NCBI GenBank assembly: GCA_020724845.1
Contig: DYGE01000005.1
Location: forward strand, 6,116 to 70,115
Source: Candidatus Paceibacter sp.
GTDB lineage: Bacteria; Patescibacteriota; Minisyncoccia; UBA6257; 02-FULL-45-10c
Direction: 5' to 3'
DNA length: 64,000 bases
Below are positions 4,470 to 46,600 of the stretch, piece by piece. A program made the position numbers and the translations under genes. The notes under the pieces were generated by a model. The model ran no database searches. It had not been told where the DNA came from and saw only the letters and a program-made list of their open reading frames with translations. Every line of letters begins with the position of its first letter. The first letter of the stretch is position 1.

Positions 4470-6300
4470 ATCCGTTACAGATTAGATCAATCTCTTCGGA
4501 GTTAAGTTCTCCCTTTTCAAAAAGCGCCTCTGCCAACTTCTCAAGAGTTCGCTTATGCTCTTTGAGCAACGTCAGAACCTCGCTTCTGGCCTTGCTGATT
4601 ATATCCCCAACTTCGGCATTAACGTCATCCAGCATCTTTGAAGAGGGGTTGGAGGAAGCGTTCTCGTACATCATCTGGTTTCTCAATCCTTGATTTTCCG
4701 GGACAACTATCAAGTTCTTGCCCATCCCCCACTTAGCAACCATATGCCAGGCAAGCTGACTCGCTTTCCGCAAGTCGTCCGATGCCCCGTTAGTTACCTT
4801 ATTATCGTCTCCGCTAAAGAACAGCAGCTCACCGGTCCGTCCGCCCAGCAATATCTTAATGCGATTCAGGGCCGCCTCTTTGGAAGTCAGCTTTTTATCG
4901 TCATCCGGAAGCTGAAGGGTATACCCAAGGGCCTCGCCATGCGACAGCAAAGTAACCTTGTGCACCGGATCAGAGCTAAGCAGTTTTGCCACCAAGGTAT
5001 GCCCGCTCTCGTGATAAGCGACGATCTTCTTTTCCTCGCCGACAAGGATAGGCCTTTTCCGCTTCGGTCCGGCTATCACCCGCTCAATCGCCTCTTCCAA
5101 TTCCGATTGCTGAACGGTTTCTTTGTCATGCCTGGCCGCGAGCAAAGCGGCCTCATTAATCACATTCGCCAGATCGGCGCCGGTGAAGGTCGGAGTTCTT
5201 TGCGCGATAACTTTCAGATTCGCGCCAGGGTCCAACTTAACATTCGCGGCGTGAACCTGAAGAATTTCCTCTCTGTCTTTAAGAGTCGGAAGCGGAATCG
5301 GAACCTTTCGATCAAACCGCCCGGGTCGAGTCAAGGCCGGATCCAGAACTTCAGGCATGTTAGTCGCGCCAATGAGAATTATCTCGTCGCTGGCATCAAA
5401 ACCGTCCAATTCCACCAGGAGCTGGTTAAGGGTTTGTTCCCGCTCGTCATGTCCGCTGCCAATTCCGGAAAATCTTTTCCGGCCGACTGAATCCAGCTCA
5501 TCAATAAAGATGACTGCTCGGCCGGCCTGTCTGGCCTGATTGAACAAGTCTCTGACTCTGGAAGCGCCGACGCCGACAAACATCTCCACGAATTCCGAGC
5601 CGGAACCCTTGAAAAAAGCGACATTGGCTTCTCCGGCCACCGCTTTGGCAAGCAAAGTTTTACCGTTGCCGGGCGGACCAACCAGAAGGACTCCCTTTGG
5701 AACTTTTCCGCCCAGTTTTCGAAACTTCGCGGGATTTTTCAGAAACTCAACGACTTCCTGCAATTCTTCTTTGGCTTCCTCGCAACCAGCAACGTCTTTG
5801 AATGTCACGTCGCCGGCTTTTTTCTGGTGCCGCTTGGCTTTGGACTGGCCGAAAGAGAACGCGGCCTTGCCGCCTTTAGCCATCGGCCTAATCACTATAA
5901 ACCACCAAGCGCCAAAGAAAAGTGCCAGCCAAAAGAGGTTCCCGATTATTGAAGCTATCCAGCTTCTATCGGGCATTCTCTTATAAGTAACCTTGCTTTT
6001 TTCCGCCAATTTCCTAATCTCCTCAGCCTCTTCCAAAGTCGCCGGCAAAGTATAAACTTTCCGCGACCTAGCCGACGACTGATTGCCGGACTTGGCTTGC
6101 GGATCGCGCAATTCGCCGGTGATTTTCTCTCCAGAATATTCTAAATTATCAACTTTCTTCGCCGAAATATATTCTTTAAATTGCGTAGGACTAATCTCCG
6201 CCGGGGCAGTCAACCCTTTAAAAAGACTGAGAAGGAAGATAAACGCGCCAATCAAGATAAGCATCTTCCAGGGACTGCCTTGCGAAACTCGACCGCTCAT
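4462..6300 (-). CDS. ftsH: ATP-dependent zinc metalloprotease FtsH
   Basis: N-terminal TM segments, AAA Walker [22 protein letters not shown], zinc motif HESGH, length 612 aa. Confidence 0.9.
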
Positions 6301-15539: not shown

Positions 15540-17024
15540 TTAAGATAGCATTTTGTCAAGGAGAGTCCTTAAAACCGCCGGATTTCCCCGCCCTTTCAAT
15601 TCTTTCATAGCTTGCCCGACAAGAAATTGGATCGCGGAGCTCTTGCCGTTTTTGTAATCTTCCACAGCCTTAGGATTTGCCCCTATAACTTTCAGGACCA
15701 CTCCGCTTAACTCCCCTTCTTCAGAAACCTGCCCCAATCCTTCGTTTTCCACCAGAGTTCTCGGATCCACTCCAGATTCAAGAATCTTGACTAGCAAGTC
15801 TTTGGCTGTTCGGCTAGATATTTCTTTTTTAGAAATCATATCAATCAAGTCCGCAAAATTTTCCGGCGTAAGCTTCAAATTTGAAAAATTTAATTCTTTT
15901 TCCCTGACTAATCCCTTAAGGTCGCTGTTTAAGTAGTTAAAAAGCAATTGCAACTTGTCGGCAGGCGCGGATTCTTGATCATCAGCTTCCATTTCTGAAA
16001 CCGCCTCCTCAAAATACTCCGCCTCTTTTCTGTCTTCAACTAAAATATTCGCCTGGTCATCCGTAAGCTGAAACTGTTTCTTAAAGCGCTCCCTCTTTTC
16101 ATTAGGCAATTCCGGCACTTCTAACTTTAAAGCATCAAGATCAAAAGCGGAGCTGTCTAAAGGAGGCAAATCCGGCTCCGGGAAGTACCTGTAATCGTGG
16201 GCCTCCTCCTTAGAACGCTGGGAGGTAGTTTTCTTTTTTGCGTCATCCCAACCGCGAGTTTCCTGTTTGATATCTTTTCCATCATCCAATAGAGCAGCCT
16301 GCCTCTCAACCTCGTAATTAATGGCTTCCTCAATCGCCCTGAAAGAGTTCAGATTCTTAATTTCCACTTTTGTACCCAGCTTTCCATCTTCCATGCTCAA
16401 ACTGATATTGGCATCGCCTCTCATCTGGCCTTTTTCCAGATCAGCATCAGCCACCCCCAAATATCGCAAAATCAGCTGAAGCTCCTTGGCAAACGCCACC
16501 GCTTCCTTGACGCTATGCATATCGGGTTCCGTAACCAGCTCCATCAAAGGCAATCCGCCGCGGTTAAAGTCAACAAGCGTAGACTTCCCGTCCGGCGAGT
16601 GTACGAGCTTGCCCGCGTCCTCCTCCAAATGGACGCGATTCAATTTCACTATTTTTTTACTGCCTAACCCTTCAATAGAACTCTGGGCAAGACGCGCGGA
16701 AATATCTATAACGCCGCCCTGAACTATCGGAAGATCATATTGGGAAATCTGATAACCCTTCGGGAGGTCCGGGTAAAAGTAATTCTTTCTATCAAATTTA
16801 AAACTGTCATTGATTTTCCCTCCTACAGCCATGCCGATTTTAATCATCGCTTCTACTGCTTTTTTATTGATGACAGGAAGCGTTCCCGGGTGACCAAGGC
16901 AAATCGGGCAGACGTTGGTATTTGGATGCTTTTCTTCCGTATTATTCGGACAATCACAAAACATCTTCGTCACGGTTTTCAGCTCCGCGTGAATTTCTAA
17001 TCCAATTGTAGGTTTGTATTTCAT
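15540..17024 (-). CDS. gatB: Asp/Glu-tRNA amidotransferase subunit B
   Basis: N-terminal IGLEIHAELKT...KMFCDCPN, GatB/YqeY C-terminus. Confidence 0.92.
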   Translation of the reverse strand: MKYKPTIGLEIHAELKTVTKMFCDCPNNTEEKHPNTNVCPICLGHPGTLPVINKKAVEAMIKIGMAVGGKINDSFKFDRKNYFYPDLPKGYQISQYDLPIVQGGVIDISARLAQSSIEGLGSKKIVKLNRVHLEEDAGKLVHSPDGKSTLVDFNRGGLPLMELVTEPDMHSVKEAVAFAKELQLILRYLGVADADLEKGQMRGDANISLSMEDGKLGTKVEIKNLNSFRAIEEAINYEVERQAALLDDGKDIKQETRGWDDAKKKTTSQRSKEEAHDYRYFPEPDLPPLDSSAFDLDALKLEVPELPNEKRERFKKQFQLTDDQANILVEDRKEAEYFEEAVSEMEADDQESAPADKLQLLFNYLNSDLKGLVREKELNFSNLKLTPENFADLIDMISKKEISSRTAKDLLVKILESGVDPRTLVENEGLGQVSEEGELSGVVLKVIGANPKAVEDYKNGKSSAIQFLVGQAMKELKGRGNPAVLRTLLDKMLS

Positions 17025-17031
17025 ATTTAGA

Positions 17032-17095
17032 CCGTAGGCAGTAGCCCGCAGTCCGTAGCAATTTTTTCTACACGCTACGTACTACGATCTACGAA
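17032..17095. repeat. Hairpin-array element C (GTAG words x3, loop, CTAC words x4) between the HD-protein stop and the gatB start
   Basis: accGTAGgcaGTAGcccgcagtccGTAGcaattttttCTACacgCTACgtaCTACgatCTACg; near-identical to the element at 34557-34630. Confidence 0.75.
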
Positions 17096-18400
17096 CTATT
17101 TGGTGAATTCTAAAAGGTAATCTTTGATTTTATCCGCCTTCTTGTGAAGTTGGTCCCGATATTCGGGGAAAGCGCAAACTCGCAGCATATGGTGAGAACG
17201 CCCATATTCCACCATGGCCGCGAAATGGCTGGGGTAAAAATCGCTCAGCTTAACAATTTTCCCCTCTCTGCCGTAAACTTTCACGTCTTCCGGCACAAAT
17301 CGATGATGCGACATTGGCGGCACTACCACTATCTCGGATTCCGGGATGTCAGCTTCTTTAGCGATACCCCTCTCTAATTCGGCCAGTTTTTCCAGGGTAG
17401 AAATCGCGCCGCCGGACATGAAGCTATCCAAGACGGATTCTGACAGGCCAATCACCTGCAGAGCCTTATCTTCCCGGCGCTCATCCATCTTCACAAACTG
17501 CTCGTACTTTATCTCAATGGCTGTTTTCGGGAAATTCCCGGCCCGCAACCGGCTATTATACTTCTGAATCAGAGGATTTTGAGAAATTTCAAATCTCCCC
17601 AAAAGGCCGAAATCGGTCAATTTCCAAATGTCATGCACCGACATTCCGTCTTTGACCAGCTCATAAGCCATGTGCTGAATCAAACGCTGAATAATGGCGG
17701 ATTTTTTTCTCAAATAAACATGCTTGGACATCTTGATGTAAAAATCCTGAATCGCTTTAGCTTGGTCTATCACCTTCTCGTCCACCACCACCTGATTGTC
17801 TATAAAATAGATATAGCGGGATAAGTAAGCCACTCCGGGAACTTCCTGAATAGTATAAAATGCGTCTCGGGAGAGATAATCAAACTTTTCCATTCCCAGA
17901 TTTTTGTCGTGAATCGCGAGATAAAGCTTGTCTTCGTGCCTAAAGAACTTAAGTAAAGCTTCAAAATCCACCCCCACCTTTTCAATCGGCTCCCGCAAGT
18001 TGCTAACGATTTCAATAGCCATCGCGTCATCGGCTCGTAACCCGGATTTGCCGGCATCCGGCAGGAGATCAAACAACGGCTCGACGGTGTGCGAAAAAGG
18101 GCCATGCCCTATGTCATGATAAAGAGCATAAGCGGTCGCAAGCTTAGCCTGCTCTTTGGTAATCATGCCGCTTTCCGCCCAGCGCCTAACTAAATTCTTA
18201 GTCCTCTGGAAAGCGCCAAGACAATGCTGTTTGCGGGTGTGGGTAGCGGACGGGAAAAGCAGAAAAGCCAGCCCAAGCTGGTATTTATAAGCCAAGGATT
18301 GAAACTGCTCCACATCAATCATCGGAAGAAATTTGCTGATATCGATCAAACCGAGAATCGGATCGGAGACAATTTTCTGTTCAGGTAATTTAGCGGCCAT
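17096..18400 (-). CDS. dGTPase-family HD-domain dNTP triphosphohydrolase-like protein
   Basis: HD motif YHDIGHGPFSHTVE after HCLGAFQRT. Confidence 0.75.
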   Translation of the reverse strand: MAAKLPEQKIVSDPILGLIDISKFLPMIDVEQFQSLAYKYQLGLAFLLFPSATHTRKQHCLGAFQRTKNLVRRWAESGMITKEQAKLATAYALYHDIGHGPFSHTVEPLFDLLPDAGKSGLRADDAMAIEIVSNLREPIEKVGVDFEALLKFFRHEDKLYLAIHDKNLGMEKFDYLSRDAFYTIQEVPGVAYLSRYIYFIDNQVVVDEKVIDQAKAIQDFYIKMSKHVYLRKKSAIIQRLIQHMAYELVKDGMSVHDIWKLTDFGLLGRFEISQNPLIQKYNSRLRAGNFPKTAIEIKYEQFVKMDERREDKALQVIGLSESVLDSFMSGGAISTLEKLAELERGIAKEADIPESEIVVVPPMSHHRFVPEDVKVYGREGKIVKLSDFYPSHFAAMVEYGRSHHMLRVCAFPEYRDQLHKKADKIKDYLLEFTK

Positions 18401-18492
18401 TTACTTAAATTTAACATAAATTTAAAGAAAATAAAGCAAAAAACCGCCCTAGGGGAAATATAAAAAATACTGCCCTTAAGCGGTTTATAAAA

Positions 18493-19176
18493 TTACAGCC
18501 GACGCCTCACAACTTTCCAAACTTTCTCATGAATCTCCTCTCGACTAAGCAACTTTCCGTCTTTTACGCACTCAATTACAACAAAATGCTTCGGATCCAT
18601 CCTGGCCATCTCCAGATACACTGCTTCCGCGTGCTTGAGATGATTCAAATCATTCTCGTGGATATCGCGCTTTTTGCCCTTGAGATATTTCCGCTTCTCT
18701 TTCTGATCAACCAGCTGCTGCGCGATTTCAGCAGGCACGTGCAAAATGATACAGAAGTCGGCGCGCGGAATTCCAAGAATATCATACTCAAATTCCTGAA
18801 CCCAATTGTAAAACTTCTTTCTTGCCGCCTTACTTCTGATTTTTCCGCCCTGATGCCCCCTATTAGACTCTTCGTATCGGTTAGACACCACAATCTTTCC
18901 TTCCTTAAGGCATTTTATGATAAAAGGCGAAATATCAAATCTATCCACTCCATAAAACACAGACGCCTTGTAGGGTCCGACCTCGTCAGCCGAACCATAT
19001 TTTCCATTTAAATATTCTCTGACTAAATAGGAAGATGGTTTATTGTATTGCGGGAAATCAAAGGTAGTAGTTCGGCGACCTTCTTTCTTAAGGCGAGAAA
19101 CTAAGAGTTTAAATTGGGTTCCCTTGCCAGATCCATCGGTACCCTCAATGACTATAAATTTGCCACGCTTTTCCAT
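18493..19176 (-). CDS. tmk: Thymidylate kinase-like (dTMP / deoxynucleoside kinase family)
   Basis: P-loop FIVIEGTDGSGKGTQ, DRY-like SNRY. Confidence 0.65.
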   Translation of the reverse strand: MEKRGKFIVIEGTDGSGKGTQFKLLVSRLKKEGRRTTTFDFPQYNKPSSYLVREYLNGKYGSADEVGPYKASVFYGVDRFDISPFIIKCLKEGKIVVSNRYEESNRGHQGGKIRSKAARKKFYNWVQEFEYDILGIPRADFCIILHVPAEIAQQLVDQKEKRKYLKGKKRDIHENDLNHLKHAEAVYLEMARMDPKHFVVIECVKDGKLLSREEIHEKVWKVVRRRL

Positions 19177-24130: not shown

Positions 24131-24163
24131 AGAAAAAACCCCGCAATGCGGGGTTATTTTTTT
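24131..24163. terminator. Intrinsic terminator with core CCCCGCAATGCGGGG (shared with 25948-25980)
   Basis: aaaaaaCCCCGCAATGCGGGGttattttttt overlapping the methyltransferase stop codon. Confidence 0.6.
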
Positions 24164-24807
24164 AGACAGCGATACAACGAAGCGCCGCCTTCCACTTTCA
24201 CATCCAATAGGAAATAAGGATTCAGCATTCTCGCCAGTCGTTCCGGAGATAGCCAGTGGAAAGAAGTTAGGTGGCAAGGCATTCCTTCTCTGACCTGCAC
24301 ATGATGCACGATATCGCCCACCAACCAGCTGACTTCCACAAAATTATCTCCATCGAGCTGATATTCTTTAACTAGCGGCTTTTCTGGCGGTCTTTTATTG
24401 AAAGTATTAAACACAAATACTCCGCCACCCCTTAGAAACGCAGCCAAGAAGCTCGCAATCTCTTCGCAAAGCCAGTAATTAACGGCTTGCTGACAAAAAA
24501 TGAAATCAAATTGCTTTTTATCTTTTACGGAAGATTTGATATAGGAATCAACCGTGTCTACCTCCACCCGAATTCTGGGATTCAATTTGGCCGGCAGGCC
24601 CATCATACGTTCTTCTCTGTCAACTAAGACTACTTCTTCGGCGCCAAGACGAGCCGCTTCAAGCGACAATCTGCCGCTCCCGCCGCAAAGATCCAGCACT
24701 CTCTTACCGGCAACCGAACCGACTAATTCAATCAAGCTTCCGGCCGGCCGGCTATAAAATCGCTTATAAAGCTTTTCGTAAGTTTGGTAATCCGGATATT
24801 GTTCCAT
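24154..24807 (-). CDS. Class I SAM-dependent methyltransferase
   Basis: Motif I VLDLCGGSGRLSLEAA, motif II VVLVD. Confidence 0.75.
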   Translation of the reverse strand: MEQYPDYQTYEKLYKRFYSRPAGSLIELVGSVAGKRVLDLCGGSGRLSLEAARLGAEEVVLVDREERMMGLPAKLNPRIRVEVDTVDSYIKSSVKDKKQFDFIFCQQAVNYWLCEEIASFLAAFLRGGGVFVFNTFNKRPPEKPLVKEYQLDGDNFVEVSWLVGDIVHHVQVREGMPCHLTSFHWLSPERLARMLNPYFLLDVKVEGGASLYRCLKK

Positions 24808-32182: not shown

Positions 32183-32603
32183 CAACCTCCGCCGCCACAG
32201 AATCCAAAAAAGCGCCAACTTTAGCCCTGTCCATTCCTGATAAAATTCCTTTCATCTTATTAATCTGGCCTTCTATCTCCCCAATCTGTTTCTTATATGC
32301 CAAGGCTCTGTTCGGATCCGAATCTTTAATCTTCTCCAAGATGGCTGCTTTACTATCTCTCATTGCCAAAGCATGTTCAAGCAACCCCCTAAGGCGCGTT
32401 TCAAATTCTGCTTCCGGCAGATACGCCATGCCTTTATCTCGCGCTTTTTCGGCCGAGGGGTAAACTTCTTCTGGTGAAAGCTTGCCTTCCTTGGCGAGCT
32501 TTCTGCGCATAGCCAAAGCGGCAGCCATCTTTTCTTCCATATCCTTAAGCTCGCCCGAGGAAAGATTGTTCTCCTTATTCGGTTTCTCTTTTCCGAAAGC
32601 CAT
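32151..32603 (-). CDS. Hypothetical coiled-coil protein
   Basis: 150-aa ORF with charged, helical character, tightly packed after pheT. Confidence 0.5.
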   Translation of the reverse strand: MAFGKEKPNKENNLSSGELKDMEEKMAAALAMRRKLAKEGKLSPEEVYPSAEKARDKGMAYLPEAEFETRLRGLLEHALAMRDSKAAILEKIKDSDPNRALAYKKQIGEIEGQINKMKGILSGMDRAKVGAFLDSVAAEVDERKNLDEER

Positions 32604-34549
32604 TACCTTAGCTCAACGTTAAGCTTATCAATTAATGTTTTAGTTATGACTGACATTTCTTTATCAACCTCGGAATCTTTCAAAGTGCGGTCCTCCGCCT
32701 GAAAGACTATTCTGAAAGTTAAACTCTTCCTTCGCGCATCAGGCCGCGCGCCGCGCTCCAGAGTGGTATGCTTGGCTGGCGGCGCTTCGTAGTAATCCAG
32801 CAAATCAACATCTCTGACCAGTTTTAGGCTGGTTCGCTGAATCAAAGAAAGAATGTCCCCGACGCGCGCTTTTTGAGGGACAAAAAGAGAGATGTCTCGA
32901 ACAACCGCCGGATACTTGGGGATCGCCTTGAATTCTCTGTCTTCCAGCTCGGCTCCTAGCAATTCACCTAAATCCAATTCCAGAACCGAGGCGTCTTTTG
33001 GATCTTGGGAAATCGCCAATCGTCCGACTACCTTAGTTCCAATTTCAAAACGCAACCCGCCCCCTTCATCAGCGGCCCGGTAATCGGTGATGCCTAAATT
33101 GCCAAAAATCATATCGGCCAATCCCTTGAGTTCCAAGGGCGAATCTTTAGCGGCAATACCCACGCCGAGCATCAGCCGCTCATTCAAAGAACCATCCCGA
33201 ACGGAAAATACTTTTCCGATTTCAAAAATCCGCACGGCGTCAAAAAATCTTAGATTGTCCCGTAAATTTTTAAAGAGATTCGGCGCCAGACTGTCTCGCA
33301 AATGACTGAACTGGCCGCTAATCGGATTCAGGATTTCCTGGGCGCCTTCGCCAACTTCTTCCTTAGAAAGAAATGAATAATTATATACCTCGCTAATGCC
33401 GGCGCCAGTTAATAAAGAGCGAACCCTATCTTTTAGGGTGACCTGCTCCTCTTCTTGGGCGAAGCCCATCGAAACAGTAGGCGCTTGGGCGGTTAAATTA
33501 TCAAATCCGTAAATCCTGGCCACCTCCTCTGCTAAATCCTCAATATTATTTATATCCGATCGTAAAGCCGGCACTTCTACTCTGCTACCAACCTTCTTAA
33601 AGCCAAGTGACTGCAGAGTTTGAAAAACTTCTTTAGCGGCAAATTGGCGCCCGATCATACTGTCAATCTTTTTAATGTCCACTTTCAGTAATTTTCTCGG
33701 TTGTTTTTTTGGATAAACATCAGCTGTTTTATAAACTTTGGCGCCGGCGATTTCCCGCAGGAGCTGAAGCGCCCGCTTCATACCCAATTCCGATAATTCC
33801 GGGCTTAGCTGATGAGAAAACCTGACCGAAGAATCCGTAATCAGTCCCAATTTTCTGGAAGACTGATATATACTCACGCCGTCAAAATTAGCAGCTTCCA
33901 CCAAGATGTGCTTGGTGGAATTTTTAACCTCGCTAAACTTCCCGCCCTTAATGCCGGCAACGGCAAGCGCGGAATCAGAATCGGCAATGACTAAATTGTC
34001 AGGCATTAAGCTTATTTTTTGTTCATCAATAGTTTCAATCTTCTCCCCTTTTTTGGCCGGCCTGACAATAATGCCTCCATTAACTTTATCGGCATCAAAA
34101 GCATGCAACGGCTGACCGACTTCCAGCATCACGTAATTCATAATGTCCACTACGTTATTAATGGAACGCAAACCGCAGGATTCTAAGACCTCTTTCATCC
34201 AGACCGGAGACGGCCCGACTTTGATATTAGAAACATAGGTTGCCATATAACGACGGCACAACTTCTTATCCTTGATGTTCACTGTAAACATGCCGCGCTG
34301 CCTTACATCCGGCTTCAAAGCTTTAACTGTCGGGTCGGCTAATTTAGTGCTCATGACCGCCGACACCTCCCTGGCAATGCCAAGGTGGGACGCCGCGTCA
34401 CTGTATCGGTTGGGAGAAATGGAAATGTCTAAAATATCACCACCGACATCGTCCGTTTCAAAAATATAAAGATTCAGCTTTTCTAGAAGCTGTGATTTGG
34501 TGTACATGCCTGGGGCTAGTTTTTTTATGAGATTATATGAAAATTTCAT
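32603..34549 (-). CDS. pheT: Phenylalanyl-tRNA synthetase beta subunit (short form)
   Basis: B3/4 domain, B5 and the FDAVRIFEIGKVF class II-like core. Confidence 0.85.
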   Translation of the reverse strand: MKFSYNLIKKLAPGMYTKSQLLEKLNLYIFETDDVGGDILDISISPNRYSDAASHLGIAREVSAVMSTKLADPTVKALKPDVRQRGMFTVNIKDKKLCRRYMATYVSNIKVGPSPVWMKEVLESCGLRSINNVVDIMNYVMLEVGQPLHAFDADKVNGGIIVRPAKKGEKIETIDEQKISLMPDNLVIADSDSALAVAGIKGGKFSEVKNSTKHILVEAANFDGVSIYQSSRKLGLITDSSVRFSHQLSPELSELGMKRALQLLREIAGAKVYKTADVYPKKQPRKLLKVDIKKIDSMIGRQFAAKEVFQTLQSLGFKKVGSRVEVPALRSDINNIEDLAEEVARIYGFDNLTAQAPTVSMGFAQEEEQVTLKDRVRSLLTGAGISEVYNYSFLSKEEVGEGAQEILNPISGQFSHLRDSLAPNLFKNLRDNLRFFDAVRIFEIGKVFSVRDGSLNERLMLGVGIAAKDSPLELKGLADMIFGNLGITDYRAADEGGGLRFEIGTKVVGRLAISQDPKDASVLELDLGELLGAELEDREFKAIPKYPAVVRDISLFVPQKARVGDILSLIQRTSLKLVRDVDLLDYYEAPPAKHTTLERGARPDARRKSLTFRIVFQAEDRTLKDSEVDKEMSVITKTLIDKLNVELR

Positions 34550-34556
34550 TTTTTAG

Positions 34557-34630
34557 ATCGTAGGCAGTAGCCCGTAGTTCGTAGAAATCATATTTTTATT
34601 CTACGCCCTACGCTCTACGTACTACACGCT
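34557..34630. repeat. Hairpin-array element D (GTAG x4, loop, CTAC x4) between the pheS stop and the pheT start; a copy of element C
   Basis: atcGTAGgcaGTAGcccGTAGttcGTAGaaatcatatttttattCTACgccCTACgctCTACgtaCTACa. The first 30 nt are near-identical to 17032-17060, including the junction with the start codon. Confidence 0.75.
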
Positions 34631-39106: not shown

Positions 39107-39240
39107 ATTTTTTATTTAATTATTAATAAATTTAAAGAAAGCGACTTGGAGTTTAATTCTAACATTTTGCTATAAAACTTAAAATGTAAAAGTGTGTATA
39201 AAGTAGGGCGCCTTTCCCAATCTAACCCTCCTCACAAATT

Positions 39241-39265
39241 AAAAAACGGCCAAAGCCGTTTTTTA
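39241..39265 (-). terminator. Intrinsic terminator immediately 3' of tRNA-fMet
   Basis: aaaaaACGGCcaaaGCCGTtttttt. Confidence 0.6.
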
Positions 39266-39270
39266 ATTTG

Positions 39271-39343
39271 TTGCGGGGGTTGGATTCGAACCAACGATCT
39301 TTTGGTTATGAGCCAAACGAGATAACCACTTCTCCACCCCGCG
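39271..39343 (-). tRNA. Initiator tRNA-fMet (CAT)
   Basis: CGCGGGGTGGAGAAGTGGTTATCTCGTTTGGCTCATAACCAAAAGATCGTTGGTTCGAATCCAACCCCCGCAA. Near-identical at both ends to E. coli tRNA-fMet, with a C1xA72 mismatch, the CUCAUAA loop and an A73 discriminator. Confidence 0.85.
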
Positions 39344-39367
39344 ATTATATTATATTGTAAATATAAT

Positions 39368-39814
39368 ATGAACGCAACCCAAACTAAGCTGCTGGGAATC
39401 GCCCGATCCCATCTGGGCGCTCCCTATGTGTATGGAGCCAAACCGGAAGAAATCCCTCAAAAAATGGATTGCTCATCTTTTACTCAATATATTTACAAGC
39501 AAATTGGCATAGATCTGGAAAGAAGCACCATCCTGCAGGCGGCCCATACGGGAGCAGAGATTAAACTTACAACTGACAACTTACAACTGACAACCGCACT
39601 AAGAACCGGCGACCTCTTGTTTTTCCGAGGAACTAGAGGGCATTACAACGATGAATTATTCCCCAACAGGGAAATTTATATAGGCCACGTTGCCATGTAC
39701 ACAGAAGACGAAAAGGCAATCCACGCGAGTTACCCGGAGGGAGTAATTGAACAATCACTCGCTGATATCATTAAAAAAAGAGGTCCGATTGTAATGGCGA
39801 AGAGAGTAATATGA
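39368..39814 (+). CDS. NlpC/P60-family cell-wall peptidase
   Basis: YVYGA...DCSSF (catalytic Cys), GDLLFF...GHVAMY (His). Confidence 0.75.
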   Translation: MNATQTKLLGIARSHLGAPYVYGAKPEEIPQKMDCSSFTQYIYKQIGIDLERSTILQAAHTGAEIKLTTDNLQLTTALRTGDLLFFRGTRGHYNDELFPNREIYIGHVAMYTEDEKAIHASYPEGVIEQSLADIIKKRGPIVMAKRVI

Positions 39815-40362
39815 AAATAAGCCACCTTGTTCCTGCTTATTCCCAAAGAATCCATATTAAAGACCGAAAATGGCAAAATCGGTCTTGCGGTATAGTTTCT
39901 CTGGCAATGGTTCTAAATAGTCTAGGAGGAAATACCACCCTCGGTAAACTGTTAAACATTGGACAAAATCTGAAGTTTACTTATAAGGATAAAAGTTATT
40001 CCGCTTATTCAAAAAAGGGCGGTTGGAATCATTGGGGACTAGTTCGGCTTGCGGAAAAACAGGGTTTTGAGGGGGTGGTGTACGATTGGAATGTTGACAA
40101 TGATGTGTGTAAAAAAATTTCTAAAGCGGAGGCTTTCAAAAAAACCATTCAACACCTGCGGAGATTTCCATTACTCGCCTCGGTGCATAACAGCTTTGAT
40201 AAGGCGCGAGGCGGACACCTCATCGTGCTTATCGGCGCCGATGGCGATAAGCTGCTCTTTAATGATCCTGACGCTAAGACCACAGGCGAAGTGAAAAAAG
40301 AAGTTGCGGTTAATAAGTTTCTTAATGGCTGGAAAAAGAGGATAATTATATTAAAAGCGTGA
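39811..40362 (+). CDS. Peptidase C39-like (papain-fold) domain protein
   Basis: WQNRSCGIVSLAMVLN (Cys) ... GGHLIVLIGADGDKLLFNDP (His). Overlaps nlpC by 4 nt, so it is translationally coupled. Confidence 0.55.
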   Translation: MKISHLVPAYSQRIHIKDRKWQNRSCGIVSLAMVLNSLGGNTTLGKLLNIGQNLKFTYKDKSYSAYSKKGGWNHWGLVRLAEKQGFEGVVYDWNVDNDVCKKISKAEAFKKTIQHLRRFPLLASVHNSFDKARGGHLIVLIGADGDKLLFNDPDAKTTGEVKKEVAVNKFLNGWKKRIIILKA

Positions 40363-40976
40363 ATTGGAAAAAATTTATAAAACTTACCGTTGTAATCTAT
40401 ATAGCTGTCGGCTTCTTTCTAATCTTCGGGAAAACATCCTGGTTCCCGGAGTTTTATAATCCCCGCTTTATGGGCGGACTGGCTTTTGTCTCCGTTTTGC
40501 TTATGTTAGCGCCGCACTTTGTCTTTAATTCCAACGGGGAGCAAAGGCAGCAATCTGTTTTTCTCCTCCAAAAGGTAGTCACGGTAACAATGATACTGAA
40601 CGGGCTCGGCGGGCTAGGCCTCTATCAGCTTTATAGATTCGGATTTGAATATGATAAACTGATGCATTTCGTGGGCCCTATGCTTTTCACTGTCAGCGCC
40701 AGCTATCTATTGCACAGTTGGTACGCGACCGACATCAAAAAGTCGCTCGGGGCCGCAGTCATCATAGTCATGCTATTTGGCATTGGCTGGGAATTTTTTG
40801 AACTTTTCGCCGACCTATGGTTCGGTACGGAAACCTTAGGCCAGTACGGCCAGGGCATTCCTGAAGATACGGTTGTTGATATTATTATGAATTCCTTCGG
40901 AACTTTATCCGGAGCGCTTTGGATAATGTCAAAAAAAGAATTTTGGCATGACTCGGAAAATTCTCACAAAATTTGA
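40359..40976 (+). CDS. Hypothetical polytopic membrane protein (third gene of the nlpC module)
   Basis: 5-6 predicted TM helices; 4-nt overlap with the upstream gene. Confidence 0.5.
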   Translation: MNWKKFIKLTVVIYIAVGFFLIFGKTSWFPEFYNPRFMGGLAFVSVLLMLAPHFVFNSNGEQRQQSVFLLQKVVTVTMILNGLGGLGLYQLYRFGFEYDKLMHFVGPMLFTVSASYLLHSWYATDIKKSLGAAVIIVMLFGIGWEFFELFADLWFGTETLGQYGQGIPEDTVVDIIMNSFGTLSGALWIMSKKEFWHDSENSHKI

Positions 40977-41033
40977 TTTTTTAGAGAGAAAAATCTATAA
41001 TCTAGCAAATCCTTTTAAGCCCAATAAGGGTTA

Positions 41034-41345
41034 ATGAGAAAGCACGGGCGTCGAACTTATATTGCAACCTATTGGCTGAAAACAACCATCCAGATCGCTC
41101 CTGGAATCGGCAGCGGAGACGAATGCCACAAACTGCCGGAGGAAGAAATAGCGGCCATTAGCGATGATAAGGCAATTGAGGGCGCTGAAACTAAAAGACA
41201 AGCGCTAGAAATCCTGGAAAACGCCGGAGAAAATCCTTATAACCTGGAAAAAAATGTGCTTTTGGTGAGTATCAAAGATAAGAGAAGCGGCCTAGAAATA
41301 TACAGCCGATTCACCGATCCGACCATAAACAAAACTTCGCGTTAG
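41034..41345 (+). CDS. Hypothetical small protein
   Basis: 103-aa ORF; no recognised motifs. Confidence 0.35.
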   Translation: MRKHGRRTYIATYWLKTTIQIAPGIGSGDECHKLPEEEIAAISDDKAIEGAETKRQALEILENAGENPYNLEKNVLLVSIKDKRSGLEIYSRFTDPTINKTSR

Positions 41346-41362
41346 CGAAGTTTTTTAATGAA

Positions 41363-42553
41363 CTAAAACATGAAAAGATACGGTTGAAAGAAGTCCGGGT
41401 AGGCCTTCACATAAGCACAAAAACAATAGATAAGACCGGAAACTATCAGGCCCAGCACCGCGTAAGCTCTAGCGCTTTTAATCGGGATCTCCCAGGGCTT
41501 AGTTAAGAGGTAGAGGACAAAGAAAGTCCCTCCGATTTTCTGCAGTTCGCCGATCCCGTAAACTGATCCGACAAAGAGCGCGGTAATGCCAGCGACGATG
41601 GTAACTATCTGTGAGAACACGTAATTCCGGCTTCCATCGTACCAGCGAGTAGAGCTGATGAGCAGCCCCAAATATCCGACAAAACTACCGAGGAAAAGCC
41701 CGCCATAACGGAATGATTCCAATGGACCAACTACCACTCCGGAAATCTGAAGCGCAACATAAACCGCCAGCACGGCAAAAGCCGCTATGGTGCCACGACC
41801 TAGCGCCGCCTCATCCTGGAATCCAATAAACGCGCAAAGCGGCAGCACCAACACGCTGAACCCCAGCGCGCACATCAGAGCAAGCACTCCGATAAAACCG
41901 ATTAGAGCGCTGTTATACCAGATAGCTACACCGCTCCAAACAACGAAAAGAATTGACCAGAAACTGACATAATTCTCTTTTAATTTATGGATCTCTCCGC
42001 TTAACAACAGCGAGGCGGCAAGAAGAATACAACCGGTAAAACCTACGTAGGGGGCCGTACCCGGGCCAAATTCATAACCTTGGAAAATCAAGCCAAAGCT
42101 TAGCACATAAAGCATAACCTCCCAGACCTCTTTAGGAATGGCCGTAAGCATATTAACTATAAAATCTCCTATCAAATATACTCCGCAGCCGACAACTCCA
42201 AAAATTGCCAACACCCAAAGAATGTTAGTAAAGGTAATAAAACCAGCAGCCTTCTGAAGAAGAGTGAGCTGATTAGCAGTTTGGGAGTCGGCATCCTGGC
42301 CGGCAAGAAGATCCTGTAAGCTGATTGGCTTGCCAGCTACCTTCGACGCTTGCTTAAGATATCGCTCTGTCCCCTGCTCCGCCTGCATGGATGAAACAAC
42401 CCCGTCCTTTACAAGCTCATGCAGAGCCGAAACTTTTGTCCTGATAGCAGCAAGATCATTTGTTTGCTTAGCAGAAAATTCCGTCGTATTGGCAAAAGCC
42501 AAACCAACGGTCAAAGACCAAAGCGCCGCGGCAATTACTAGCGCCCGTTTCAT
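41363..42553 (-). CDS. Hypothetical membrane protein with signal peptide and ~8 TM segments
   Basis: N-terminal MKRALVIAAALWSLTVGLAFA; C-terminal half strongly hydrophobic. Confidence 0.55.
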   Translation of the reverse strand: MKRALVIAAALWSLTVGLAFANTTEFSAKQTNDLAAIRTKVSALHELVKDGVVSSMQAEQGTERYLKQASKVAGKPISLQDLLAGQDADSQTANQLTLLQKAAGFITFTNILWVLAIFGVVGCGVYLIGDFIVNMLTAIPKEVWEVMLYVLSFGLIFQGYEFGPGTAPYVGFTGCILLAASLLLSGEIHKLKENYVSFWSILFVVWSGVAIWYNSALIGFIGVLALMCALGFSVLVLPLCAFIGFQDEAALGRGTIAAFAVLAVYVALQISGVVVGPLESFRYGGLFLGSFVGYLGLLISSTRWYDGSRNYVFSQIVTIVAGITALFVGSVYGIGELQKIGGTFFVLYLLTKPWEIPIKSARAYAVLGLIVSGLIYCFCAYVKAYPDFFQPYLFMF

Positions 42554-42640
42554 TTCTCTTACTCCTGTCCCGAGATTTCAATGTGCATCTGCGTTATATA
42601 ATATCCAAGAACAAGCAAAAGTCAACCCTGGATAAAATAT

Positions 42641-42682
42641 GTTTTAAAAATAAAAAGGCGCCCCAACACGTTGTTGGGGCGC
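42641..42682 (-). terminator. Intrinsic terminator of the GC-rich cassette
   Basis: Perfect 11-bp stem gcgccccaaca / tgttggggcgc followed by TTTTTATTTTT on the minus strand. Confidence 0.7.
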
Positions 42683-42704
42683 TGCTGGCCTTGGACCAGC
42701 CGGG

Positions 42705-42971
42705 CTACGGGAGAACGAACCCTTCCATCTCCTGCTTGATCAGCGAGGGGATGGATTGCTTCATCCTCTCCTCGTAGTGCTTCGTGATCTGGTCGTTCTT
42801 CTCGGGGTAGCCGTTGGTGTACCAGCGATCTCCCTTACGGACCAGGTGCGCCGTGACCGTCTGGGAGTTGCCCTTGAACCGGAACGTCACCTGCGCCCGG
42901 CGACCGTTCCGAGAACGGCTGATCACCTGCGCGACTTCCAACACCGGCACTTCCGCGGTTTGGCCTTTCAT
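42705..42971 (-). CDS. Foreign high-GC small protein (88 aa), unknown function
   Basis: About 60% GC with GC3-rich codons (GGC, CGG, CTG, ACG) against a ~48% host. Perfect SD GGAGGG 7 nt upstream, whereas host genes lack SD. Has its own promoter and terminator. Confidence 0.65.
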   Translation of the reverse strand: MKGQTAEVPVLEVAQVISRSRNGRRAQVTFRFKGNSQTVTAHLVRKGDRWYTNGYPEKNDQITKHYEERMKQSIPSLIKQEMEGFVLP

Positions 42972-43019
42972 CTTTCATCCCTCCTTGGGGTTTACAGATT
43001 GCACCGGTACATCATGGTG

Positions 43020-43056
43020 CTGACTAAATGCTAGCACATTTTATTGCTTTTGTCAA
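43020..43056 (-). promoter_or_regulatory. Consensus-like sigma70 promoter for the GC-rich cassette
   Basis: On the minus strand: TTGACA (43056-43051), 17 nt spacer, TAGCAT preceded by TG (43033-43028). Confidence 0.5.
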
Positions 43057-43394
43057 GAAGGAGGATTCCTATACAAAAGGTCGAAGCAAAATGATCCGGT
43101 TAAATGGCGCAGCAAACAGTGATGAAAGGCATCTGATAAGATCAAAGCCCATCCAATACAAGATAGCGCCATGCCGGCAATACCGCCAATCCCCAGATAA
43201 TAACAAAGCAGTAATATCACCGCGCCAACGTAACCATGATGAATTCTTACGCCAAAAGTATACTCGCCAATGAACGTAGTATCTTTCGCGCTTTCCTTGC
43301 CCAGCACGAAACGGAGAAAGCAAGTTGCCAATTCAATGATTATGGCCAAAAGGAAAGTTGCGACAACAATAACTCCGGCGGTCAGCTCTACCAC
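43053..43394 (-). CDS. Hypothetical small membrane protein
   Basis: 113 aa with three hydrophobic helices. Confidence 0.45.
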   Translation of the reverse strand: MVELTAGVIVVATFLLAIIIELATCFLRFVLGKESAKDTTFIGEYTFGVRIHHGYVGAVILLLCYYLGIGGIAGMALSCIGWALILSDAFHHCLLRHLTGSFCFDLLYRNPPS

Positions 43395-43513
43395 GGCAGG
43401 CTCCTAGATCAACTTTTGAACAAGCTTATTATATTTTAAAATATAATTGCAGCATTGTGAACCTTTTCGGGAAAGCTTTAGTTTTCCTGACTCACTTTTT
43501 GTTCAAATCCGGT

Positions 43514-43539
43514 CGCAAAAATAAAAATTGGACTTAAGT
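43514..43539. terminator. Palindromic terminator 3' of tRNA-Asp
   Basis: aaaaATTGGACTTAAGTCCAATttttt. Confidence 0.6.
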
Positions 43540-43545
43540 CCAATT

Positions 43546-43620
43546 TTTATTTTTGCGGGCGCGACCGGATTTGAACCGGCGGTCTCCTCCGTGACAGGGA
43601 GGCGTGTTAACCAGGCTACA
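43546..43620 (-). tRNA. tRNA-Asp (GTC)
   Basis: GGGCGCG-TG-GTGT-AGCCTGGTTA-ACAC-G-CCTCC-CTGTCAC-GGAGG-AGAC-CGCCGG-TTCAAAT-CCGGT-CGCGCCC-G. Discriminator G73. Confidence 0.85.
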
Positions 43621-43667
43621 CCACGCGCCCATATTTAAAAAAGCATAAGCTAAACCGAAGCCAATGT

Positions 43668-44198
43668 CTACTCCCTAATCAGGTTCAACTCCTTGAAAGA
43701 CTGCTGATAAATACTTATCACCTCTTTAGCTTCCTCGTGAGTGATTTCATAAGTCGGGTCTTTAGCAATCCGGTCGCGGACCACATGGGCGTTTTTCACG
43801 TCGTCAACATTCGCTAATTGCGCCGGCGTTATTAATTCCAGCTTTTCCTCCATTCTAATCCCGAGGTAACCGGACATTTTGAGAATTTCATCCAGAATAT
43901 GATCAGCTTCCAAGATGGCGAGCTTCCATTGGCTTTGTTCCTCGGATTCCATTCTCTTTTGTATTTGCTTCCAGGCGCGGAGCGATCGCCTGCGAGAAAC
44001 GCGCCCCCCTCCGAGCACATCCAAGAATTGCTCCCGCTTTGTCTCTAAATAATTGGTTTTATTGATTATATAGACTATCCCCCACAAAAAAAGGGCTGAC
44101 AAAAGCAGCGAGACTATCTCCAGCCACCAAAGGTTGGGCTCAAGATAGCCGCCAAAAAAATCTCTGATCGGATAGATAATATCCAAAAGGAGCTCCAT
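43668..44198 (-). CDS. Hypothetical membrane-anchored protein
   Basis: 176-aa ORF with N-terminal TM, immediately upstream of gatA. Confidence 0.45.
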   Translation of the reverse strand: MELLLDIIYPIRDFFGGYLEPNLWWLEIVSLLLSALFLWGIVYIINKTNYLETKREQFLDVLGGGRVSRRRSLRAWKQIQKRMESEEQSQWKLAILEADHILDEILKMSGYLGIRMEEKLELITPAQLANVDDVKNAHVVRDRIAKDPTYEITHEEAKEVISIYQQSFKELNLIRE

Positions 44199-44201
44199 AA
44201 A

Positions 44202-45641
44202 CTAATTATACAGCTTTTCGTAGAATTGGCCGATGCCCAAAATGTCCGCCTCTCGGAAACGGCGGCCGATGAGCTGAAAACCGACCGGCAACCCAGTCCG
44301 CTTTTTCACCGGTATAGAAAGGGCCGGCAAGCCGGCAAGATTAACCGGTATAGTAAAAATATCGGAAAGATACATCTCTAGAGGATCGGCTGATTTTTCT
44401 CCTATTTTAAAGGCGCGAGTCGGGGTAACCGGAGTCGCAATCACATCTACCTCTTTAAAGGCCTCGTCAAAATCCCTCTTGATGAGCTGTCGCACCTTTT
44501 GAGCTTTGGAATAATAGGCGTCATAGTAACCGGAAGAGAGAACAAAATTGCCCAATAATATTCTCCTCTTCGGCTCCGCGCCGAAACCAGCCTCCCGATT
44601 TTTACGATACAAATCCAGAAGACTGCCGGCTTTGTGCCTAGTGCCGTATCTTATGCCATCAAACCTCTCCAGGTTGGAGCTGGCCTCCGCGGGCATAATT
44701 ATGTAATAACAAGAGAGAGCGTATTTTGTGTGAGGCAATCGAATTTTCTTAATTTCCAAACCCAAGCTTTTTATATCATTTATAACCCTTTCCACTTCCG
44801 CAGAAACTCCCTTATCAAGGCCTTCAATAAAGTATTCTTCAGGAATTCCGATTTTCAATTTTTTAATATTTTCCAGTTTTGGATTGAGCAAATCTTCCAA
44901 AGAATAATCAACATCGGCGCTAGTGGCATCAAGATCATCTTTCCCACGTATCTCATTAAATAAAATTGCAGCATCCTCAACCGTCTTGGTTAACGGCCCG
45001 ATCTGATCCAAACTGGAAGCCAAAGCAATCAGCCCATGCCGGGAAACCGATCCATAAGTAGGCTTTAATCCAACTACCCCGCAAAAAGCTGCCGGCTGGC
45101 GGATTGAGCCTCCCGTATCGGACCCCAAAGCCGCGACCGCCATATGATCCGCCACTGCCGCAGTTGATCCGCTGGAAGATCCGCCCGGAACTCTCTCCAA
45201 GTCTTTAGGATTCTTGGTAATCTTAAATCCGGAATTTTCTCCGGATGATCCCATTGCAAACTCATCCAGATTGGTTTTGCCCAAAATAACCGCGCCGGCA
45301 TCCTTTAATCTTTTGGATACCGTTGAGTCATAGCTCGCCGTGTAATCTTTCAAAATTTTTGACCCAGCGGTGGCCGGCAGTCCCTCAACAAGAATATTGT
45401 CTTTCAGGGCTATAGGTATTCCCGTCAATTTAGTCACTTTCTCATTCTTGGCTATTTTGATATCCGCCGCCTCTGCCTGCTTAATTGCAAAATCTTTATT
45501 TAAACTCAAATAAGCGCCAATTTCGGAATCCCTTTTTTCTATCCAGTCATATGTAGCTTGAGTTATTTCAAGCGCCGAAAAATCTTTTTTTAGCAACCCT
45601 TCGTGGAATTTTTTGATTGTTAGATCGTGTAAGTGTGCCAT
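44202..45641 (-). CDS. gatA: Glu-tRNA(Gln) amidotransferase subunit A
   Basis: Amidase signature GGSSSGSTAAVA, Ser-cisSer-Lys triad region. Confidence 0.9.
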   Translation of the reverse strand: MAHLHDLTIKKFHEGLLKKDFSALEITQATYDWIEKRDSEIGAYLSLNKDFAIKQAEAADIKIAKNEKVTKLTGIPIALKDNILVEGLPATAGSKILKDYTASYDSTVSKRLKDAGAVILGKTNLDEFAMGSSGENSGFKITKNPKDLERVPGGSSSGSTAAVADHMAVAALGSDTGGSIRQPAAFCGVVGLKPTYGSVSRHGLIALASSLDQIGPLTKTVEDAAILFNEIRGKDDLDATSADVDYSLEDLLNPKLENIKKLKIGIPEEYFIEGLDKGVSAEVERVINDIKSLGLEIKKIRLPHTKYALSCYYIIMPAEASSNLERFDGIRYGTRHKAGSLLDLYRKNREAGFGAEPKRRILLGNFVLSSGYYDAYYSKAQKVRQLIKRDFDEAFKEVDVIATPVTPTRAFKIGEKSADPLEMYLSDIFTIPVNLAGLPALSIPVKKRTGLPVGFQLIGRRFREADILGIGQFYEKLYN

Positions 45642-46087: not shown

Positions 46088-46600
46088 TTAGAAAGCCAAA
46101 TGGGCCTGCTCCTCTTTTCTCAATTCCATTTTCATATAAGCAAGATCGTTAAGTCCTACAAAAAGAAGATCTTCAACCAAAATTTGATATAAGCCCATTC
46201 TGCTCCTCAAATTAAAATCACTATCCGCACTGCCCATCTGATATCCTAATTCCTTGCCAACTTCTCTCAATATCTTCTTAGAAAATTTATTTCTCTTCAA
46301 TAACCAGGTGGTCTCCGTCATTTGCTTCATCAATCTCTCACATCGGTCATTGGAAATTTCCAATTCCACAGAACTCAATCTGCCACCCCTCCGCAAAATA
46401 TCAACGTTATCTTTTACGTATCTGTAATCATCAATTTGAAGAAGAATCTTCCTGGAAAGATCAGGGGTTAGCTTGGGATTCTTGGAATGAATCTTTTCTT
46501 CTATATCTTTAACCAATAGGCCGGCAACCCTGGAATAATCCAGAGAATGACCGAGGGAAGGGATAATAGTTATCGCGAAAATAAGCAATGCCTTTTTCAT
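46088..46600 (-). CDS. Hypothetical secreted protein
   Basis: Signal peptide MKKALLIFAITIIPSLGHS. Confidence 0.45.
   Translation of the reverse strand: MKKALLIFAITIIPSLGHSLDYSRVAGLLVKDIEEKIHSKNPKLTPDLSRKILLQIDDYRYVKDNVDILRRGGRLSSVELEISNDRCERLMKQMTETTWLLKRNKFSKKILREVGKELGYQMGSADSDFNLRSRMGLYQILVEDLLFVGLNDLAYMKMELRKEEQAHLAF

Follow-up and report, generated by a model that had tools for sequence, protein, structure and literature searches.

The stretch of DNA analyzed here (64 kb, referred to as the window) averages 45% GC, and not about 48%, the value given in an earlier note for the surroundings of the gene described below. This gene, p88, lies among the following features.

39270-39343, minus strand: tRNA-Met(CAT), one boundary of a variable interval
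41363-42553, minus strand: p396, the downstream neighbour, a membrane protein conserved in Patescibacteria (89 homologs, at most 52% identity)
42646-42682, minus strand: predicted intrinsic terminator, an 11-bp perfect stem (GCGCCCCAACA/TGTTGGGGCGC) with the loop ACG, followed by CTTTTTATTTTT
42684-42700, minus strand: 7-bp hairpin between the p88 stop codon and the terminator
42705-42971, minus strand: p88 ORF, 88 aa, GC3 0.85, an orphan; the product is basic and lacks a signal peptide and transmembrane segments
42979-42984, minus strand: Shine-Dalgarno (SD) sequence GGAGGG, 7 nt before the p88 ATG
43001-43020, minus strand: 5-bp hairpin (GCACC/GGTGC) with a 10-nt loop, at the predicted 5' end of the mRNA
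43028-43036, minus strand: extended -10 element TGcTAGCAT (TG at 43036-43035, TAGCAT at 43033-43028), 17-nt spacer from the -35 hexamer
43051-43056, minus strand: -35 hexamer TTGACA, overlapping the TGA stop codon of the upstream ORF
43053-43394, minus strand: p113, the upstream neighbour (113 aa), a predicted multi-pass membrane protein of host-like composition
43555-43630, minus strand: tRNA-Asp(GTC), the other boundary of the variable interval

Both strands were read, and p88 extends from an ATG at 42971 to a TAG at 42707-42705. Its basic 88-residue product and the strong GC3 bias at about 60% GC, both described in the earlier note, are confirmed (GC 0.60; GC1 0.56, GC2 0.38, GC3 0.85). For reference, the 55 other non-overlapping ORFs of the window were taken as genes. 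They have a GC1 of 0.512 +/- 0.040, a GC2 of 0.374 +/- 0.051 and a GC3 of 0.477 +/- 0.050, with a GC3 maximum of 0.568. The corresponding z-scores of p88 are +1.2, +0.2 and +7.5, so that p88 departs from the host at the synonymous position alone. Among 13,758 in-frame 88-codon windows of host genes, not one has a GC3 above 0.674. A synonymous-codon score derived from the host places p88 5.8 standard deviations below the other genes (z = -5.8). The period-3 spread between its codon positions was matched by none of 100,000 shuffles of the ORF and therefore reflects genuine coding periodicity in the p88 frame. ORFs of 92, 69 and 47 aa overlap p88 in other frames; the antisense ORF of 92 aa (42756-43034, plus strand) was rejected as not credible because it would have a GC1 of 0.85.

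A maximal-segment analysis identified 42657-42965 (309 nt, 63% GC) as the top GC-rich segment of the 64 kb, with twice the score of the runner-up. The GC island thus consists of the p88 ORF body and the terminator. Its compositional edges are abrupt. The promoter and 5' untranslated region (UTR) (42972-43056, 85 nt) have a host-like GC content of 42%, and the spacer downstream of the cassette has 32%. Describing the entire cassette as GC-rich is thus correct for the ORF body and the terminator but not for the promoter and 5' UTR. A second copy of the cassette was found neither in the window nor in any fetched locus.

The near-consensus sigma70 promoter that had been reported is present at 43056-43028 and is properly spaced from the gene. 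No other site on either strand of the 64 kb combines a perfect -35 hexamer with an extended -10 element (0.07 expected). Promoter-like sites matching at 10 of 12 positions are not rare (24 in the window versus 13.3 +/- 4.2 in first-order Markov simulations). Judged from the position of the -10 element, transcription would start near 43021. The hairpin at 43001-43020 is no more stable than shuffles (z -0.9), and any role that it might have for the p88 mRNA is conjectural.

The perfect GGAGGG is found 7 nt from the ATG, as had been described. Its duplex with the anti-SD sequence CACCUCCUUU has a dG of -11.7 kcal/mol, the third strongest among 56 genes. Only 8 of these 56 genes reach a dG of -6 or below, and the median is -1.3; the host is therefore SD-poor. 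The statement that the surrounding genes essentially lack SD sequences holds for the window overall but not for the two direct neighbours of p88, which both carry AGGAG. Just two other genes in the window have SD sequences as strong as that of p88, and both have a host-like GC3. One encodes a 170-aa protein without a Pfam family (46088-46600, minus strand, SD AAGGAGGG) and the other a methyltransferase (24154-24807, minus strand, SD GGGAGGAGG).

The perfect 11-bp stem of the terminator, also recognized earlier, spans 42682-42658. It has 8 G-C pairs, a 3-nt loop and a subsequent T run, and no other of the window's 11 terminator-like hairpins has a perfect stem that is as long or as GC-rich. Upstream, p113 has a promoter (TTCACA-17-TAAAAT, 43461-43433), and no terminator was found between p113 and p88; read-through from the p113 promoter into p88 is therefore probable. 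By its predicted signals, p88 is self-sufficient for expression, yet it is not isolated from p113. The downstream gene p396 has a promoter of its own (TTGACT-16-TATTAT, 42625-42598). A 10-nt imperfect inverted repeat that brackets the cassette (42632-42641 and 43035-43044) was taken as a chance occurrence because 900 nt of sequence contain nine pairs of this kind.

A 61.9-kb JGI contig (3300029893) and a 23.7-kb Logan contig (SRR5011275) encode the exact 88-aa protein as well, with identical gene order, and an NCBI assembly records it on a 91-kb contig. No publication was found to name the sample accessions. A 1.8-kb Logan contig from an independent population (ERR15087765) covers p113, p88, p396 and both junctions at 99.5% identity. 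This allele differs by six SNPs and one in-frame 3-nt deletion. Four SNPs are in p113 and all of these are synonymous, so that the two populations have no non-synonymous difference in this gene (the second population is represented by locus L001). The others are in the promoter spacer (43037) and upstream of the SD sequence (42988); the -35, TG, -10 and SD elements of p88 are unchanged. The deletion removes one GAG from a GAGGAG repeat in p88, which results in an 87-aa variant. Triplet-repeat slippage makes this in-frame indel weak evidence for coding.

The host is a Parcubacteria-type member of the Patescibacteria without a close sequenced relative. This follows from GatA (44202-45641), whose closest counterpart in 185,579 species genomes is 71% identical and which shares 67% identity with Candidatus Jorgensenbacteria, and from p396, which is 51% identical to its best named homolog, from Yanofskybacteria. 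The p88 region is flanked by the housekeeping genes ligA, gatC, gatA, pheS and pheT (gatCAB, ligA, pheST and tRNAs). The same tRNA-Asp/tRNA-Met pair follows gatA in relatives, with a spacing from 3 nt to 4.2 kb.

3 nt between the tRNAs (L007): no gene
about 0.5 kb (L012, L028, L046): an NlpC/P60 gene alone
1.9 kb (L006): a MurD-like gene and a membrane protein
2.4 kb (L018): a C39-like peptidase and NlpC/P60
4.2 kb (window): p113, p88, p396, p103, DUF2238, C39-like and NlpC/P60

The differing distances and contents mark this interval as a variable spot, consistent with the tRNA-flanked accessory stretch that had been proposed. The interval downstream of gatA (39270-43630 in the window) is a gene-content hot spot across Parcubacteria-type genomes, with NlpC/P60 as its commonest occupant. 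Among its seven genes in the window, p88 is the only one that is compositionally foreign. In the NlpC/P60 gene of the window (39368-39814), a perfect 14-nt tandem duplication (AACTTACAACTGAC x2) was observed at 39564-39591. Besides this internal tandem repeat, 39200-43700 contains no direct repeats of at least 14 nt. No integrase was detected by Pfam in the 20 kb around p88, and the interval has no tRNA-derived repeat or duplicated tRNA 3' end. A PHROGs scan of nine neighbours of p88 for phage genes returned only the generic NlpC/P60 domain. The synteny of p113 and p396 is absent from the GatA-anchored loci of 80 genomes; the best p396 homologs (at most 52% identity) lie in unrelated contexts. 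A search for p113 homologs among 5.8 billion proteins returned only its own allele, so that p113 is an orphan, too. An empty site lacking p88 was not found among these relatives because even the nearest available ones are so distant.

The p88 protein has a mass of 10.2 kDa, a pI of 9.99, a net charge of +5.7, a GRAVY score of -0.83 and no hydrophobic N-terminus. Outside the locus, no homologs were found in about 15 billion proteins, in phages, in plasmids or in IMG/VR. A word-indexed search of 5.8 billion clustered proteins returned the allelic 87-aa variant only. An exhaustive phmmer (HMMER) scan of 1.84 billion representatives returned only the locus itself and two long tandem-repeat surface proteins (P0002, P0003). 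Both were rejected; their scores are inflated by repeats, with a chance match of 18-36 residues to p88 counted 6 to more than 20 times. The other Patescibacteria genomes contain no homolog. The Pfam family WYL (PF13280) has an E-value of 0.084 and scores 13.3 bits, below the gathering threshold of 21.8. There was no significant match in PHROGs, NCBIfam, PADLOC or PDB sequences, none at the protein or DNA level in phages and plasmids (tblastn and blastn), and none in a peptide-pattern scan of IMG/VR. Two metagenome-contig scans were also empty, with a collection that apparently lacks the source contig itself. Closest matches in high-GC taxa or phages had been named as support for horizontal transfer, a check that could not succeed because p88 has no matches at all.

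An AlphaFold2 model computed without an alignment is of low confidence (pLDDT 65, pTM 0.55). It has strands at residues 11-19, 25-32, 38-46 and 49-54, followed by a helix at 61-84. This C-terminal helix is the least confident part of the model and holds a proline as well as the one-residue deletion of the variant allele. Foldseek searches with the model against PDB and BFVD returned nothing at E <= 0.001. The small, basic protein is predicted to be soluble and cytoplasmic, and is possibly nucleic-acid-binding, which its basic charge would fit. A small module that binds nucleic acid or protein would agree with the modeled fold class and the charge, while membership in any specific family is unsupported. 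In a comparison with small basic beta-rich nucleic-acid binders (WYL/Sm-like small beta-barrels, SpoVG, PC4/YdbC-like), all p88 matches are below significance or threshold.

The organization of p88 resembles that of phage morons such as HK97 gene 15 (Cumby, Davidson and Maxwell 2012, PMC3594210), which are single genes between two others, with their own promoter and terminator and with a GC content unlike that of their neighbours, implying horizontal transfer. A predicted promoter and a predicted terminator enclose the single gene p88, and its composition is unlike that of its flanks (GC3 0.85 versus 0.48 +/- 0.05). Morons are, however, defined inside phage or prophage genomes, between conserved phage genes, whereas p88 resides in a housekeeping chromosomal region without phage genes (flanked by gatCA, ligA, pheST and tRNAs). 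It is likely an orphan acquired by horizontal transfer, or a moron-like islet. As in tRNA-associated genomic islands and islets, accessory genes are found beside tRNAs, and the interval content differs between these distant relatives. Unlike in such islands, there is no integrase or recombinase, no duplicated tRNA 3' end and no tRNA-3'-derived direct repeat; also, the compositional island is one 309-nt gene, and its neighbours in the interval do not differ from the host in composition. Like the species-specific orphan genes described by Vakirlis and Kupczok 2024 (PMC11293555), p88 is short, is located in a variable region and has no homologs outside the species. According to that study, orphan genes generally match the GC content of their host, and virus-like ones are lower in GC. 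p88 is far above its host (GC3 +0.38) and is thus atypical for an orphan as characterized there.

The compositional anomaly, the coding periodicity and the sequence signals are observed directly, as are the real junctions, the variability of the interval and the orphan character of p88; its foreign origin, expression and function are inferred. We consider it likely that p88 is a single-gene accessory unit which was laterally acquired by a Parcubacteria-type chromosome of about 45% GC, where it is an autonomously expressed orphan. "Laterally acquired, autonomously expressed orphan gene" is also the safest label. The idea of an acquired gene thus persists in that a foreign origin is likely, given the unique synonymous composition, the variable interval and the absence of homologs from other Patescibacteria. 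Horizontal gene transfer and genomic islands have been documented in Patescibacteria (PMC12455944).

The genome in which the coding sequence evolved would have had roughly 60-65% GC, and the GC-rich terminator may have come along with it. The coding sequence would then have landed between the lineage-specific p113 and the conserved p396, within an interval that gains and loses genes. There, it would be transcribed from the near-consensus sigma-70-type promoter, which is located in host-like AT-rich sequence abutting the p113 stop codon; read-through from p113 would probably add to this transcription, which is predicted to end at the strongest intrinsic terminator of the window. Most genes of this genome lack an SD sequence; translation of p88, with GGAGGG at optimal spacing, should start efficiently. 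The product would be a soluble cytoplasmic protein of 10 kDa and pI 10, modeled as four strands in a beta-meander or small beta-barrel, with a helix at the C-terminus. We tentatively suggest that, rather than being a catalyst, it might bind nucleic acid or a protein partner stoichiometrically and serve as a small regulator or as a nucleoid- or RNA-binding accessory protein. An import leaves two observations unexplained: there is no donor in about 15 billion proteins, and GC1 and GC2 look host-like.

If p88 is a recent import from a high-GC organism, it preserves, without amelioration, a rare trace of gene flow between phyla into a streamlined CPR genome, and its donor signature could give a clue to the physical host of this uncultured episymbiont. 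p88 also illustrates that a canonical set of promoter, SD sequence and terminator is kept where most other genes of the genome do without SD sequences. Beyond the import signature, p88 is one more orphan gene, and its function is a guess.

Several alternatives to lateral acquisition of a binding protein were considered. p88 might be part of a conflict system (an anti-defence gene, an immunity protein or a solitary toxin or antitoxin) that originates from a phage or mobile element and is kept since it protects the episymbiont or manipulates its host. We regard this as unlikely. The earlier note had raised phage or plasmid derivation, which gains no support from phages, plasmids, IMG/VR or PHROGs, nor from the neighbours, apart from the generic NlpC/P60 domain. 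It had also raised an anti-defence or toxin/antitoxin function. PADLOC returned nothing for p88 or its neighbours, and Pfam, NCBIfam and PADLOC assign none of them to a toxin or antitoxin family. p88 is single and lacks a partner gene as expected for a type II toxin-antitoxin system; its neighbours are membrane proteins of 113 and 396 aa. It shows no similarity to known Acr or anti-defence families, has no adjacent HTH gene of the aca type and is not in the context of a phage or mobile element. Structural scores are at noise level for the model with a pLDDT of 65. DNA-mimic anti-CRISPRs and many immunity proteins are acidic, while p88 is strongly basic.

A further reading relates to additional cassettes of this type. 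In 24 other Patescibacteria loci, originally retrieved for synteny, a scan identified two of these.

L021 (CAZEXD010000016.1), 5442-5890: GC-rich cassette with TTGACT-17-TGcCATAAT, AAGGAG, a 114-aa ORF and a hairpin followed by a T run
L023 (JBAZEY010000005.1), 18090-18990: AGGAGG SD sequence, a 276-aa ORF with a GC3 of 0.74 in a Patescibacteria genome of 42% GC, and its own terminator

The 114-aa protein is hydrophobic and rich in Arg, Leu and Ala. Its ORF has a GC3 of 0.79 in a Patescibacteria MAG of 35% GC (host GC3 0.29). The cassette is located downstream of gatA, 400 nt after tRNA-Gly/tRNA-Thr, and three copies of the palindrome CAGAGATCGTATCTCTG (5268-5360) lie ahead of it. Neither of the two proteins has a Pfam or PHROGs match, the 276-aa protein has none in phages or plasmids either, and both are unrelated to each other and to p88. 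Counting 42657-43056 of the window, about 0.45 Mb of Patescibacteria sequence thus holds three orphan cassettes that are GC-rich, carry an SD sequence and have a terminator of their own. This fits a recurrent, ordinary import from higher-GC, SD-using donors, and no new kind of element is indicated. It is tempting to speculate that such cassettes are recurrently captured from the high-GC host cells of the episymbionts (or from their phages), with p88 as a small host-derived nucleic-acid-binding or anti-defence effector in the symbiosis; we consider this quite improbable. If true, the codon signature of p88 would point to the identity of the host.

Instead of being imported, p88 could be a native, lineage-specific gene, with synonymous sites pushed toward GC by selection, e.g., for mRNA stability or structure. 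A native origin would agree with GC1 and GC2 being host-like while only GC3 deviates, with the host-like promoter and 5' UTR (42% GC), with the lack of a donor and with the neighbouring p113 being likewise an orphan, albeit with host composition. The RNA also folds better than shuffles (z -2.9 for the ORF, z -4.0 for the whole transcript). This excess is, however, equal on the antisense strand (z -3.4 for the ORF) and thus is a DNA-level property, without a directional RNA signal. Such a GC3 is approached by none of the 55 other genes and none of the 13,758 in-frame windows, and we know of no mechanism which raises GC3 by 0.38 in a single gene. We therefore consider a native origin very unlikely.

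The functional product could instead be a structured non-coding RNA, with the p88 ORF being fortuitous, since stop codons are scarce in GC-rich sequence. RNA genes typically stand out in an AT-richer genome as GC-rich islands between a promoter and a terminator, which is what is found here; the folding of the whole transcript and the absence of protein homologs point the same way. Much of the fold excess of the transcript, though, comes from two 3' hairpins. Against an RNA gene stand the strong period-3 composition (GC3 0.85 versus GC2 0.38; 0 of 100,000 shuffles), the optimal SD-ATG geometry and the sole indel between alleles being in frame. Rfam 15 contains no family matching at its gathering threshold and none even at E <= 1, except for a sub-threshold match to NiCo-AnGGAG over the terminator (25.4 versus 64.5 bits). 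Given the periodicity, the SD-ATG geometry and the fold data, a non-coding product is unlikely, and we attach very little probability to an RNA as the functional product.

Finally, the assembly chimera suggested in the earlier note, or a contamination, either of which would have placed DNA of a high-GC organism inside a CPR contig, would account for the abrupt compositional boundaries but is excluded, and the cassette is real sequence, because the same junctions occur in three assemblies (JGI 3300029893, Logan SRR5011275 and, with six SNPs and an indel, the independent Logan ERR15087765); moreover, the 309-nt island is shorter than a typical read pair, and the junctions coincide exactly with functional signals.

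Two further observations concern possible RNA elements in these loci. GC-rich stretches without coding periodicity were observed in two of the other Patescibacteria loci (L011, 9379-9685; L022, 2551-3641), one of them abutting tRNA-Asp; they may be structured RNA genes. In the window, gatB (15540-17024) and pheT (32603-34549) share a conserved leader of about 75 nt just before their ATG (17025-17100 and 34550-34625, minus strand). It forms a long hairpin with nested CGTAG...CTACG repeats, includes a 22-nt identical core (0 expected by chance), folds with z-scores of -3.3 and -5.3, respectively, and belongs to no Rfam family. This may be a cis-regulatory leader of tRNA-charging genes.
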